IMG/VR virus record: IMGVR_UViG_2684623171_000009
Reading direction: 5' to 3' (one strand)
From: a virus
Taxonomy: Duplodnaviria; Heunggongvirae; Uroviricota; Caudoviricetes
Length of the DNA stretch: 64,000 nt
In this document: in pieces, positions 1,108 to 6,422 of the stretch
How positions within the stretch are numbered: the first letter of the stretch is position 1
Layout: each line of letters starts with the position of its first letter
Made by a program: the position numbers and the translations under genes
The notes under the pieces: generated by a model
Database searches by the model: none
What the model saw: only the letters and a program-made list of their open reading frames with translations
What the model was told of the DNA's origin: nothing

Positions 1108-3579
1108 TTAAGAATCAGCCTGACTCGGGATCAGTTTTTGCCAGATAGCTGAAACGTATTTTGCCTGGTAACGGGCGTCATCAAGTGCATTATGGCGCTC
1201 ACCTTCGAATGGAATAGCCGTTCTGGCATCGAAGTCTATGGCTTTCCCCAGCTCAACGATTGTGCGTACATCGCGATCGTTGTAGTAACGCCACGGGCAG
1301 GGGCTCCCCTGCCGTTCGTATGAACGGCGCAAAATCGTGTTGTCGAAGTTGGCTCCATTTCCCCAGACATGAACAAAAAATTCACCGGAGTTTTCGTCGA
1401 TAAATTCCCGCAATTGTAACAGTGCATCATCTAACGGGATTTCATCGGTCATAATGGCAGATTGCGCTTCGCGTGATTGTTTAAGCCACCATTTCATGGT
1501 GTCCCGATCAATGACTCCGCCAGCAGTATCCAGATCGATAGTCTTACTAAATTCCGGTCCCATATCTCCGGTTTGCGGATCGAAAAATATTGCACCTATT
1601 GAGATAATCGGGGCATCGGGATTTTTTCCCATGGTTTCAAGATCGATCATCAGATGAATCCCCGCTCTGCTGGTGGATGTGAGATTATGATGACCGTTCG
1701 CCTTAATTAAGGGATCTGACGCCTCGCCAGTTTCACTATCGCTGGCATGATGCTGATTGCCGCCAGTGTTCTCCTTGTGCTGATGTGCAGTACCTTCCAT
1801 TTCCTCCGGATCATTTTCCTGAACTTCAGGCTGATTCTCTCCATCGAATATTTCCTGGTATGTTGCGTCACCCATCACCGCACCACAATCAGGGCAGTTG
1901 CCGCCACCGCTCTGACCGCAGGCGGTGCAGATCTTTTCCGGTTCCTGTTGCACTACTGGTTCAGGTTGTTTCGTTTCTGGCTCGTTTTGTTGCGTATTTG
2001 GGCTGTTTTGTTCCGCTTTCTGGTCGTTCTGTTCCGTTTCTTGCTGGTTCTGGTTCACAGAATCGCGGGTCTGGATCCCCTTAACCCATTTCGGATCATT
2101 CGGGTCGCTAATCCCTTCAACAAATTCACCACGTGATACTGCAAGCAGTTCCTCGGCGTCAGGCTGGCTGATATTGGCTGCCTGCATAATTTTCTTTACT
2201 TCGTCAGCGGTAACTTTTACCGGTTCTGGTTGTTCAGAATTTTGTGCGGTATTTGCATTTTGCGGTAAGCCTGTGTATGTGCCATTTTTTCGGGCAAAAT
2301 ATTCTTCTTTTGTGATTTCAGTAGCCCCGGCAGCCAGCGCCTTATCCAGACCAGAAAGTTTGTTTGCGCGACCGTATTTTTCGCCATCCTTGTCGGTGAA
2401 GAGGAAGTAGAACGGCCCCTCACGTTCTACAGATGGTTCGACTTCCACTTTGCATTCGGTTTTTTCGTTGTCCGGAATTGCCGTTTCCACTGCATCAGTT
2501 TCTGGTACTGGCGACGAGAGAGTATCAGTTGCGCTCTGATTTGTTCCTTCATCTTCAAACACGCCCTTTGTAGTCAGGTATTCAGTAATGTATTTGTTCA
2601 GTGCCACAGGGTCTTTGTGAATGTCGATCGGACGTTCACGGACAAGGCCAAAAATAGTCTGGCGGTCGTAGCGAAGGGCATCAGGCTGTTTGCGCATTGA
2701 TGCCGAGATACGCTTCCAGTCTTCGCGGCCGTTGTCGATAACTTCATTTTTTGCCCAGCGATGGATGCTGCCGTCAATGTTTCCGGCATCCACATCACCA
2801 GGCCAGAGAGCGTAGGCCAGTTCGTCATCCAGTGTTTTCCATGTCTGCTTGTATTCGCGATGAATGGCAGCAATGACCGGGTTGATTTTTCCTGTTGAAT
2901 TTTCAGTGTGCTGTTGATTGGCTCTGGCGCGGGCGAGATCAACAACAGACGTGTATTTTCCGGCTTCCTTGCGTTCACCTTCGCGACGTTTTTTCCAGAT
3001 GCGCATCTCTGCCTGAATTTCGGGCCATTTGGCACCAGGCTTACATTTATGCTTAACCCACCCGATGGCATGCAGCTTAAGCTCCGGATACATAGCGTTA
3101 ACTTCTGGCATTTTCATCAACGCTTCAACGATATGGCCGTCGAATGTTGCCATGTCTTCCTGCAACAATTCCTGTGCGCTAATCACCATATCAACAGTGA
3201 TGTTTTCACATGTGTCGAACTTAACCATGACAGCGTTCTGTACTTCAGGGGCCAGGTTGTCAAAAGTGACGTTCATCGGATCGGATTCAGTCTCGACCGG
3301 GACAAAGGAAGCAGACGCCTCATCCCAGCGGTTTTCCTGCATATATTCAGCATCCCAGGAATCGAGGGCAGGGCGGGGTATACCGGGTTTATCCTCGCAA
3401 ACAAGAAATTTATAAGCGCAGTCCTGAGCAGCCGGATAATGTTCCAGGAATTGCCAGTGAAATTTTGCGCGGGCGCGACGTTCATCACCGGCTTCAATGG
3501 CAGTGGCTACAGCGACGGCACCTTCTTCCTTTATTGCCTGTTCGTCCGGAATGGCGGCGCAAATAAAGACTTTACTCAT
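1108..3579 (-). CDS. Large early-left-operon protein with C-terminal DEDDh (DnaQ-like) 3'-5' exonuclease domain, central zinc ribbon and Q/E/P-rich linker
   Basis: 823-aa ORF; Exo I motif MIDLETMG, Exo III motif HNALDDA; CTACGQSGGGNCPDCG; occupies the ydfE/recE position next to xis. Confidence 0.6.
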   Translation of the reverse strand: MSKVFICAAIPDEQAIKEEGAVAVATAIEAGDERRARAKFHWQFLEHYPAAQDCAYKFLVCEDKPGIPRPALDSWDAEYMQENRWDEASASFVPVETESDPMNVTFDNLAPEVQNAVMVKFDTCENITVDMVISAQELLQEDMATFDGHIVEALMKMPEVNAMYPELKLHAIGWVKHKCKPGAKWPEIQAEMRIWKKRREGERKEAGKYTSVVDLARARANQQHTENSTGKINPVIAAIHREYKQTWKTLDDELAYALWPGDVDAGNIDGSIHRWAKNEVIDNGREDWKRISASMRKQPDALRYDRQTIFGLVRERPIDIHKDPVALNKYITEYLTTKGVFEDEGTNQSATDTLSSPVPETDAVETAIPDNEKTECKVEVEPSVEREGPFYFLFTDKDGEKYGRANKLSGLDKALAAGATEITKEEYFARKNGTYTGLPQNANTAQNSEQPEPVKVTADEVKKIMQAANISQPDAEELLAVSRGEFVEGISDPNDPKWVKGIQTRDSVNQNQQETEQNDQKAEQNSPNTQQNEPETKQPEPVVQQEPEKICTACGQSGGGNCPDCGAVMGDATYQEIFDGENQPEVQENDPEEMEGTAHQHKENTGGNQHHASDSETGEASDPLIKANGHHNLTSTSRAGIHLMIDLETMGKNPDAPIISIGAIFFDPQTGDMGPEFSKTIDLDTAGGVIDRDTMKWWLKQSREAQSAIMTDEIPLDDALLQLREFIDENSGEFFVHVWGNGANFDNTILRRSYERQGSPCPWRYYNDRDVRTIVELGKAIDFDARTAIPFEGERHNALDDARYQAKYVSAIWQKLIPSQADS

Positions 3580-3671: not shown

Positions 3672-3863
3672 TTAAAGACCTGCCGGGATTTCGTTATTAT
3701 CCTGGTGAATAACTTTATCGACCGGGTAACAGTTACCGGGAATTTTCTGTTCGGTTGCTGCAGTCACACACTCCTGCATTGTCCTGTGAACACTGACTGC
3801 AATATCAACTGGCTCTCCGGAAACAAGAAAAACTGTCAGAACAAGTGCAAATGCTGTATTCAT
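3672..3863 (-). CDS. ydfD: YdfD-like small membrane (lysis-type) protein, 63 aa
   Basis: Internal Met of ORF 3672..3917 gives a 63-aa protein with N-terminal hydrophobic helix; overlaps dicB stop by 4 nt. Confidence 0.5.
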   Translation of the reverse strand: MNTAFALVLTVFLVSGEPVDIAVSVHRTMQECVTAATEQKIPGNCYPVDKVIHQDNNEIPAGL

Positions 3864-4048
3864 TGCCAGCATCCTTTTTGTATCGGACGTAAACGGGCCA
3901 ACATTGAAAGAATGCATATTTTATTTAATAGCTCCCGTTCGTGTTTTCTCTTGTTAATGGCATCTTCAGTAAATACAGGGTTACTGATAGTGACACCAAT
4001 TTCAAAACAACCTTCAGACGTATTAACGTTTGGTAATAACGTTTCCAT
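3860..4048 (-). CDS. dicB: Cell-division inhibitor DicB (62 aa)
   Basis: Internal start METLLPNVNTSEGCFEIGVTISNPVFTEDAINKR... matches recalled DicB; lies downstream of DicF as in Qin. Confidence 0.8.
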   Translation of the reverse strand: METLLPNVNTSEGCFEIGVTISNPVFTEDAINKRKHERELLNKICILSMLARLRPIQKGCWQ

Positions 4049-4222: not shown

Positions 4223-4275
4223 GGGCGGCAGAGCAGTCACGGAGTAAAACTGATACCGCCAAACGTCACCAGAAA
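4223..4275 (-). ncRNA. dicF: DicF small RNA (53 nt) with intrinsic terminator
   Basis: Minus-strand sequence UUUCUGGUGACGUUUGGCGGUAUCAGUUUUACUCCGUGACUGCUCUGCCGCCC followed by a U-run; immediately upstream of dicB. Confidence 0.85.
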
Positions 4276-5558: not shown

Positions 5559-5837
5559 TTAGGGAAACTGGCGTCTTGCGTGGATCACGTTTACTACTTC
5601 AACGCTTGATGTTGTTACGCGGTATAGAATTATATAGTTAGGGTGGGCTACAATCTCACGCAAGCCAGGTACTCTGTCGCTTGGTGGGTATAAATACGGA
5701 TGTTCGGATAACGGCAGCACACAACCCCTTAATCGCTGCCATAAGCGTTCAGCCGCATCTATGTCGAAACGAGCAATATAACTAGTTATATCATCTAGGT
5801 CGGTATCTGCGCTTTCAAGCCATAACACGGGTAACAT
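5559..5837 (-). CDS. parE2: ParE/RelE-superfamily type II toxin (92 aa), ParE2-like
   Basis: C-terminal motif ...YRVTTSSVEVVNVIHARRQFP; start 1 nt after the antitoxin stop. Confidence 0.75.
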   Translation of the reverse strand: MLPVLWLESADTDLDDITSYIARFDIDAAERLWQRLRGCVLPLSEHPYLYPPSDRVPGLREIVAHPNYIILYRVTTSSVEVVNVIHARRQFP

Positions 5838-5838
5838 T

Positions 5839-6030
5839 TTACTGCTTGCTCCGTTCCTTGCGCATCTTAGCAAAGCGTTCTGCCATTCTGCGCTCAACTT
5901 CGTCATGGGGAATTGCTGGGCGCGGATCTGCAAGGCTCGTTGCTACTTTCGCACGCAGCCATTCGTTGTAACTGTTTTCTTGTTCAATGGTTTCAAATTC
6001 AGAAACCATTGGTGAAAGGGCTCTATTCAT
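5839..6030 (-). CDS. paaA2: Antitoxin (63 aa), PaaA2-like
   Basis: 63-aa ORF immediately upstream of and translationally coupled to the ParE-like toxin. Confidence 0.65.
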   Translation of the reverse strand: MNRALSPMVSEFETIEQENSYNEWLRAKVATSLADPRPAIPHDEVERRMAERFAKMRKERSKQ

Positions 6031-6050
6031 GTTTCCTCCGGTTTTATAAC

Positions 6051-6422
6051 TCAGGCGCGGCGGCATTTTTGCGCCGCAATCCATCTCGCTATGAGATCTT
6101 CCATTGATTCTTTTTTCTGCTTTAACTCGCTGATTATCTGGCGTTGCTCATCCTCAGGGAAGGCTGAAAAAATCTGCAATAATTCCAGTTGATTAGACGT
6201 TAACCCTGCATGTGGTGGAGAACCCCCCGGTTGTTCTGCGTATTCCGCATCCAGATACCCTTCCGGCATCCCGTATGTTTGCTCTATTCTTCTGGCAGCC
6301 TTTTCTCCAAACGAGGCTCTCCCACTCATTAGTTGAGATAGGTAGCTCTTCTCTTTGGGTGGCAGAGTTTTATCTTTAAACCACTCCTTGAGACGTAAAC
6401 GGCGAATTTCTTTTTTTTGCAT
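6051..6422 (-). CDS. paaR2: XRE/DicA-like HTH regulator (123 aa), PaaR2-like
   Basis: N-terminal HTH; C-terminus resembles DicA; first gene of the three-gene toxin-antitoxin operon; divergent from a Cro-like gene. Confidence 0.65.
   Translation of the reverse strand: MQKKEIRRLRLKEWFKDKTLPPKEKSYLSQLMSGRASFGEKAARRIEQTYGMPEGYLDAEYAEQPGGSPPHAGLTSNQLELLQIFSAFPEDEQRQIISELKQKKESMEDLIARWIAAQKCRRA

Follow-up and report, generated by a model that had tools for sequence, protein, structure and literature searches.

The DNA analyzed here, hereafter the window, is a stretch of 64,000 nucleotides (nt) of the IMG/VR Caudoviricetes record IMGVR_UViG_2684623171_000009. On its minus strand, the window carries an ATG-to-stop open reading frame (ORF) of 823 amino acids (aa) whose stop codon occupies positions 1108–1110 and whose ATG is preceded, at ~10 nt, by a GAGG ribosome-binding site. 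A preliminary description of the window had reported a gene at this location that combines a C-terminal DEDDh (DnaQ-like) exonuclease domain, a CxxC...CPDC ribbon and a Q/E/N/P-rich low-complexity linker, and we found all of these elements where they had been placed (Table 1). The architecture of the encoded protein, a RecE-like body or scaffold joined to a DEDDh catalytic head, can be stated with near certainty.

Table 1. Parts of the 823-aa gene and features of the surrounding sequence, with positions in the window. pLDDT, predicted local distance difference test from AlphaFold2; dN/dS, ratio of nonsynonymous to synonymous substitution rates.
Feature	Position	Strand	Evidence
Complete, intact YdfE-type 'exonuclease' gene, 823 aa	1108–3579	−	ORF; 100% identity to WP_000048458.1; PHROG 2082
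Scaffold domain A, aa 1–98, alpha/beta, Pfam YdfE_N region	3286–3579	−	pLDDT 90–97; dN/dS 0–0.05
Scaffold domain B, aa 105–207, all-helical	2959–3267	−	pLDDT 93–98; dN/dS ~0.11; within the hhalign match to the RecE N-terminus
Scaffold domain C, aa 246–340, helical, Pfam YdfE_C region	2560–2844	−	pLDDT 94–98; BLASTP to RecE
Disordered linker 1, aa 345–383	2431–2547	−	pLDDT 30–57; dN/dS 0.77; 46% aa identity to the Tritos copy
Mini-domain D, aa 388–433, beta-beta-alpha-beta-alpha	2281–2418	−	pLDDT 94–97; dN/dS 0.02–0.09
RecE-derived segment, aa 474–625, Q/E/N/P-rich linkers around the zinc ribbon	1705–2158	−	63% identity to K-12 RecE 454–591; partial NCBIfam PRK09709 match
Degenerate 21-nt (7-aa) tandem repeat, 4 copies, in the low-complexity linker	1966–2049	−	Tandem Repeats Finder score 87, 74% matches
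Putative zinc ribbon, aa 549–571, C551/C554/C562/C565	1867–1935	−	motif in sequence; pLDDT ~78, short strands
DEDDh 3'-5' exonuclease domain, aa 641–818	1126–1659	−	Pfam PF16473; T4 DexA 8KEL best PDB match
DicF small RNA	4223–4274	−	Rfam RF00039, 76.7 bits
dicB	3860–4048	−	RefSeq annotation of identical O157 locus
ydfD	3672–3863	−	RefSeq annotation of identical O157 locus
Excisionase, downstream	784–1035	−	ORF; RefSeq annotation of identical locus
Integrase pseudogene, frameshifted/truncated	~67–749	−	ORF; RefSeq annotation of identical locus
Integrase C-terminal fragment beside the RecE-type fragment (33355–34599)	32822–33373	−	
Transposase-like ORF beside the RecE-type fragment (33355–34599)	31432–32352	+	

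The DNA of the gene is 100% identical to a coding sequence annotated as 'exonuclease' in many Escherichia coli O157:H7 chromosomes. At least 1000 contigs carry the exact protein, which belongs to a 90% cluster of 23,183 members. Because of this identity to an annotated O157:H7 coding sequence, the size of the cluster and dN/dS values of 0.02–0.23 in the folded domains, the gene is real, far beyond chance. PHROG 2082 matches the protein from end to end, and the Pfam families PF27430 (YdfE_N) and PF27432 (YdfE_C) are precomputed on proteins that are 83–99% identical to it over aa 1–344, making its membership indirect. Residues 1–256 share 96% identity with the ydfE pseudogene of E. coli K-12, which is truncated by IS2; judged by its sequence, ydfE is thus present in intact form in the window. 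Of 5426 complete E. coli genomes, 3534 contain at least 80% of the gene, and genomes having any match to it had a median of two matching places. Full-length copies occupy the same position in phages mEp460_ev081, Tritos and Evi. The gene has exactly 823 codons in 65 of 80 related IMG/VR loci; the scan for such loci was run with a single sequence and returned only 97–100% relatives. The sequence itself, the YdfE_N, YdfE_C and Rv2179c-like families, PHROG 2082 and the 'exonuclease' label are already in public databases. Full-length identity to a characterized exonuclease, which would have run counter to the preliminary description, was not found, the identical database proteins being annotated and uncharacterized. 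Literature searches for ydfE (also with dicB or Qin), Rv2179c and the CP-933P exonuclease yielded no functional study, and we found no paper describing the combination of a RecE scaffold with a DEDDh head or testing the 823-aa protein.

We assigned the head by profile, residue and structure comparisons. PF16473 (Rv2179c-like) matched aa 642–813 with E = 3.6e-66 and a score of 222.7 bits against a cutoff of 27, the match spanning profile positions 2–177 of 177. The head has the DEDDh residues D646, E648, D746, H796 and D801, none of which varies among eight aligned sequences, namely the protein, T4 DexA and six enterobacterial homologues. In this alignment, MAFFT set the H-x4-D motif of DexA four residues off the published catalytic residues (PMC12153337), and H796 and D801 were assigned by eye. 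According to the AlphaFold2 model, the head adopts an RNase H-like DnaQ fold (pLDDT ~75–96 over aa 641–818). Foldseek ranked the DexA structure 8KEL first (E = 7.8e-8), followed by RNase T, oligoribonucleases/REXO2 and Cap18. A phmmer search of PDB sequences with the head returned 8KEL and 8KEN, both T4 DexA, as its sole matches. As for the nuclease of RecE, its PD-(D/E)XK domain (PF12684) had no match in the 823-aa protein, a phmmer search with RecE 600–866 found nothing in the representative of the protein's cluster, and the similarity of aa 627–823 to RecE was not beyond chance.

Scaffold-free relatives of the head are also found in prophages. Enterobacterial prophage proteins of 180–190 aa, named '3'-5' exoribonucleases', belong to the same Pfam family. 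Prophages of Salmonella and other bacteria encode stand-alone 189-aa homologues, 57–75% identical to the head, in the position immediately before xis/int; those in the Salmonella prophages are 57–60% identical. In some E. coli, the full-length gene itself is broken into ORFs of 456, 157 and 183 aa (locus L015, 737–3127), the first being 85% identical to aa 1–452 and the last two overlapping. As the last ORF of this split gene has 183 aa, the 183-aa entries named '3'-5' exoribonuclease' (P0186, 277 member sequences) are probably frameshifted full-length copies and not true stand-alone genes.

To the N-terminal side of the head, the protein resembles RecE. BLASTP aligned aa 262–625 to residues 278–591 of K-12 RecE with E = 2e-58. 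Identity within this alignment was 25% over aa 262–336, 63% between aa 474–625 and RecE 454–591, and 82% over the ribbon (aa 548–575), where all four cysteines are kept. At the DNA level, recE of Rac-SA53 matches nucleotides 1453–1868 of the gene with 83.5% identity. BLAST detected no similarity to RecE in aa 1–245, and PF06630, which models the RecE N-terminus, did not match the protein. Alignment of 19 YdfE-type with 14 RecE-type N-termini by hhalign yielded a probability of 98% and E = 1.9e-13 over 208 columns (aa 4–245). The NCBIfam RecE equivalog PRK09709 scored 273.8 bits, as compared to a cutoff of 1269, with a good match confined to aa 452–626. By these sequence criteria, the 823-aa protein is a member of the RecE family in which the catalytic head alone has been exchanged.

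The window holds a second prophage whose minus strand encodes, at 33355–34599, a 414-aa RecE-type N-terminal fragment that matches PF06630 and is 57% identical to K-12 RecE 50–397. Since the fragment ends before the ribbon and the nuclease and abuts the C-terminal fragment of an integrase, with a transposase-like ORF near it, it looks like a truncated recE. The preliminary description had contrasted the architecture of the 823-aa protein with that of this RecE-like fragment. This contrast did not hold for the body: the ribbon and linker are RecE sequence, the N-termini are related at the hhalign probability given above, and aa 245–365 share module C with the fragment itself (35% identity, E = 2e-14). 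As the RecE family shares the ribbon, the linker and the N-terminal region, the earlier interpretation is supported only in part, in that the catalytic head does differ, with DEDDh in place of PD-(D/E)XK.

AlphaFold2 produced folded domains A, B, C and D, the ribbon and the DEDDh head. The mean pLDDT was 88.8 for aa 1–345 and 74.9 for the full-length protein. The corresponding predicted template modelling scores of 0.42 and 0.35 are low, which suggests that the domains are independent. Approximately 229 residues had a pLDDT below 50 (aa 220–235, 345–383, 439–546 and 572–636), the third of these stretches being interrupted by a short helix at aa 458–467. Domain C corresponds to the module that is common to all family members, including RecE (residues 278–351), and a phmmer search with this piece matched nearly all family representatives. 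Using the piece that contains mini-domain D (aa 380–450), phmmer found it in many YdfE-type proteins. The scaffold parts had no convincing match among solved or viral predicted structures, and the middle region, aa 384–582, which includes mini-domain D, had no meaningful match among PDB sequences.

The ribbon has the spacing C551-x2-C554-x7-C562-x2-C565 (CTAC-x7-CPDC) and accounts for four of the 11 cysteines in the protein; its match to the Pfam DZR family was weak (E = 0.13). The low-complexity stretches reported in the preliminary description extend over aa ~501–550 and ~572–640, where Q, E, N, P, S, T, D and K make up as much as 88% of a 40-aa window. Because a 21-nt, four-copy tandem repeat lies inside it, the Q/E/N-rich linker may owe part of its sequence to expansion of this repeat.

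The distribution of substitutions separates the folded parts from the linkers. Region-wise Nei-Gojobori comparison with three phage copies yielded dN/dS values of 0.02–0.23 for folded parts, 0.25 for the ribbon and 0.7–0.9 for the linkers at aa 346–384 and 581–640. Every folded module is under purifying selection. Synonymous divergence (dS) from the Evi copy rose from 0.08 in domain A to 1.05 in the DEDDh head; such jumps between segments indicate intragenic recombination.

To place the exchanged head in the context of the family, we searched 1.84 billion cluster representatives exhaustively with aa 1–344, which returned 173 clusters at E ≤ 0.001. Among 64 long representatives scanned against Pfam, PF06630 was present in 22, PF12684 in 14 and PF16473 in 10. 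Piecewise phmmer searches revealed that the YdfE and RecE types of N-terminus each occur with both nuclease heads. Ten of the 28 long proteins that had no assigned head carry a divergent PD-(D/E)XK domain (hhalign 95%, E = 4e-8), and the other 18 have in common a third conserved domain that is unrelated to both nuclease heads. The Cys4 ribbon was seen only in the cluster of the 823-aa protein and in K-12 RecE, which had been added as a reference. The family names require some care: PF06630, called 'Exonuc_VIII', covers only the non-catalytic residues 2–178 of RecE, and the nuclease is modelled by PF12684, called 'DUF3799' (RecE aa 615–850). Because PF06630 models the N-terminus only, proteins that combine a RecE-type N-terminus with a DEDDh head are labelled 'exodeoxyribonuclease VIII' in several databases.

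The third head is a C-terminal domain of ~230 aa with the motif ...GEAxKKSLTDAIKKALSxLGFSADVxLGLYD... that occurs in P0251, P0300 and 16 other representatives. Seven of these 18 members have weak matches to Pfam Rad52_Rad22 (best E = 0.017), and the proteins may represent fusions of the scaffold to a Rad52-like annealase. In one locus (L102, 4001–6717), a third-head gene overlaps a Sipho_Gp157 gene that comes after it. The domain also occurs by itself in Pseudomonas and Vibrio phages, where it is labelled 'exonuclease' or 'DNA repair protein'.

The 823-aa gene lies in a Qin-like prophage beside ynfA, in the order dicF - dicB - ydfD - 823-aa gene - xis - int (pseudogene). As DicF is encoded upstream of dicB-ydfD and the 823-aa gene, the dicBF-type operon of the window is complete and its last gene is intact, in contrast to the Qin prophage of K-12. 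All of the DEDDh-headed loci that we examined have the arrangement kilR/dicB(-ydfD) - gene - xis/int. There is no annealase gene between the 823-aa gene and xis/int in the window. No recT was found in the DEDDh-headed loci, comprising the window (L001), mEp460_ev081, Tritos, Evi, L005, L006/7, L100/101 and L103, and tblastn with two RecT queries detected no RecT in the 80 related IMG/VR loci. Among PD-(D/E)XK-headed genes, an overlapping recT comes after both Rac recE and P0248 (RecT E = 2e-36 for P0248), and in one locus with a divergent PD-(D/E)XK head (P0246, L009) recT is not present downstream. Set against RecE/RecT recombination modules, the comparison that the preliminary description had called for, the gene has a body homologous to RecE and neither the PD-(D/E)XK head nor an adjoining recT. 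Scans for promoters and terminators near the gene were at chance level, with nine found as compared to 7.9 and 7.8 expected.

Overall, we favor, with a probability of roughly 0.6, the reading that the 823-aa gene is a RecE-family early gene of Qin/mEp460/Tritos-type lambdoid phages in which a DexA/Rv2179c-type DEDDh head has replaced the PD-(D/E)XK nuclease. Its predicted product is most likely an early-operon 3'-5' DNA exonuclease that is positioned by a RecE-like scaffold. Based on the gene order and on the K-12 dicBF operon, the gene would be co-transcribed with dicF-dicB-ydfD upon induction or infection from a repressor-controlled early-left promoter, which we assume by reference to that K-12 operon. 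The head would remove nucleotides at free 3'-OH ends by two-metal catalysis involving D646, E648, D746 and D801, with H796 as the general base. The predicted 3'-5' exonuclease activity is very probable. The predicted substrate is probably DNA rather than RNA, since the closest relative is DexA and since, on the same scaffold, a double-stranded DNA exonuclease can take the place of the head. Through its disordered linkers, the scaffold would tether the head to whatever the RecE scaffold recognizes, probably DNA ends or intermediates of replication or recombination. The protein would then provide self-sufficient 3'-end processing in phage DNA metabolism and would not be half of an exonuclease-annealase pair. 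That its role lies in end-processing or recombination of phage DNA, as opposed to defence or counter-defence, we propose tentatively and at slightly less than even odds.

Expression of dicB, which is in the same operon, protects against some phages, and the 823-aa protein could likewise serve the lysogen as a nuclease of the 'HREX' kind, excluding superinfecting T-even phages by digesting their hydroxymethylcytosine DNA. EcD, a plasmid-borne, stand-alone DexA homologue of E. coli, is reported to cleave 5-hydroxymethylcytosine-containing T4 DNA selectively, to spare unmodified DNA and to protect against T4 (PMC12153337). The head belongs to the same Pfam family as EcD and has DexA as its best structural match. 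EcD is not a fragment of the 823-aa protein: the EcD primers encode MIDTET.../...TIPETYD, as compared to MIDLET.../...PSQADS here. One residue speaks against an EcD-like role: the equivalent of DexA D90 is kept as D718, whereas the dimer-only state loses D90. Of the two DexA residues that recognize 5-hydroxymethylcytosine, in an alignment at 26% identity, on which the assignment depends, W152 aligns to Y766, which is aromatic but not Trp, and D169 lies in a 14-residue insertion that is specific to DexA and has no counterpart in the head. Moreover, the gene is carried by ordinary temperate phages in a repressed early-left operon beside xis/int, PADLOC returned a single generic match to a CRISPR-associated DEDDh model (E = 3.4e-5), and the HREX claim itself comes from one paper (PMC12153337). 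We therefore regard an anti-phage function of this type as improbable. We judge equally improbable that the protein is a 3'-5' exoribonuclease that trims or degrades RNA early in phage development, whether host or phage transcripts or precursors of the operon's small RNA. The processed small RNA DicF is indeed encoded in the operon, the Pfam family is named for Rv2179c and described as a 3'-5' exoribonuclease domain, RNase T and oligoribonucleases are among the fold neighbors, and many database copies bear the name '3'-5' exoribonuclease'. These names are inherited, however, and do not come from assays. The relative closest in both sequence and structure is a DNA exonuclease, DexA, and the head sits on the scaffold of a recombination protein, in the place of a double-stranded DNA exonuclease, within the slot of the phage recombination module.

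The protein might also be a counter-defence nuclease: it would be expressed early and would need no annealase, and the intragenic mosaicism and rapid exchange of heads and linkers are typical of arms-race genes. Such a nuclease could destroy immune DNA, such as retron multicopy single-stranded DNA (msDNA), cDNA made by reverse transcriptases or 3' ends that trigger sensors, or it could blunt the RecA/SOS response by removing 3' tails. RecE, which is listed among the terms of some papers on retrons, may interact with retron msDNA. This case is wholly circumstantial. Homologues are not known to counter any defence system, the generic DEDDh model was the only defence-related match, and the folded domains evolve under ordinary purifying selection. 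We consider it slightly less probable again than the two preceding alternatives. The gene could also be a decaying, functionless remnant of a cryptic prophage, inasmuch as the K-12 copy is a pseudogene cut by IS2, the adjacent integrase in the window is a pseudogene and some E. coli copies are frameshifted into the 456-, 157- and 183-aa ORFs. The conservation data already contradict this reading, to which we give almost no weight: the length of 823 codons is retained in the 65 of 80 viral contigs, isolated phages (Tritos, Evi and mEp460_ev081) carry intact copies, the low dN/dS values apply to all folded modules and the catalytic residues are all intact.

Two further features of the window were recorded. 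Annotation of the identical O157 locus places a type II toxin-antitoxin pair, RelB / RelE-ParE, at 5559–6084 on the minus strand, within the prophage early region, with the repressor region on one side and the dicBF operon on the other. On the plus strand, an 833-aa ORF at 28613–31114 contains, in its C-terminal half, several near-identical tandem repeats of ~45–50 aa (...DGKSITPDDV(R/H)PMLEQMVKEAVSHIPVPRDGRDYDPDVLQKAVNDAVA...), which are mirrored by a long spurious ORF on the opposite strand.

RecE-RecT is a workhorse of recombineering. According to a review (PMC11611040), no function is known for the N-terminal two-thirds of RecE, except that full-length RecE boosts linear-linear recombination. 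In the 823-aa protein, the scaffold is under purifying selection together with a nuclease of opposite polarity and without an annealase. This argues for a separate role of the scaffold, for instance in targeting or in binding a partner, that is independent of RecT and of 5'-3' resection. More speculatively, and in our estimation unlikely as a whole, the RecE/YdfE body could serve temperate phages of enterobacteria as a general delivery platform with interchangeable heads for DNA-end processing (5'-3' PD-(D/E)XK, 3'-5' DEDDh and maybe a Rad52-like annealase), the DEDDh version representing an annealase-independent pathway that acts with the opposite end polarity. If this were true, the DEDDh version would constitute a natural experiment on the role and binding of the N-terminal 600 residues of RecE, which have long gone unexplained. 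Roughly two-thirds of complete E. coli genomes have the gene, frequently as several copies, and the prophages of enterohemorrhagic E. coli O157:H7 are among its carriers. Activity on DNA ends, modified phage DNA or immune nucleic acids would accordingly bear on prophage induction, recombination between prophages and competition between phages. As the catalogue-level facts are in databases already, what is gained is a sharper hypothesis and not a discovery. To a recombination specialist, a variant of RecE that has exchanged its catalytic domain for one of opposite polarity and lacks an annealase partner would be mildly surprising, and it offers a way into the old question of the role of the RecE N-terminus; it is not a new kind of system.

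Comparison with known systems delimits what is particular to the window gene. Rv2179c of Mycobacterium tuberculosis, the founder of PF16473, shares the domain family and the DEDDh fold; it stands alone, is chromosomally encoded and has been described as an exoribonuclease, and its family description shows no phage or RecE-scaffold context. T4 DexA is a DNA 3'-5' exonuclease that takes part in host-DNA breakdown and intron homing (PMC12153337). It shares the DEDDh catalytic residues and ~26% identity with the head, but is a stand-alone enzyme of 227 aa with extra loops, which carry D169, whereas the domain described here forms the C-terminal head of a scaffold protein of 823 aa, encoded by a temperate phage whose DNA is unmodified. 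In K-12, the same gene is ydfE (b1577, Qin prophage), and its operon has the same composition, dicF-dicB-ydfD-ydfE. There, IS2 cuts the gene after residue 256, such that domain C, the ribbon and the exonuclease are missing, whereas the window copy is complete. RecE of the Rac prophage of E. coli K-12 has a homologous non-catalytic body, an identical layout of the Cys4 ribbon and a Q/E/P-rich linker. RecE is of similar size (866 as compared to 823 aa) and is encoded in the same slot, as the final large gene in the early-left operon, ahead of xis/int. Its N-terminus is of the PF06630 type, whereas the first 260 aa of the window protein are of the divergent YdfE type, and recE is followed by recT, whereas the 823-aa gene is not. 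Finally, the head of RecE is a PD-(D/E)XK 5'-3' exonuclease (PF12684, PDB 3H4R), and that of the 823-aa protein is a DEDDh 3'-5' exonuclease.

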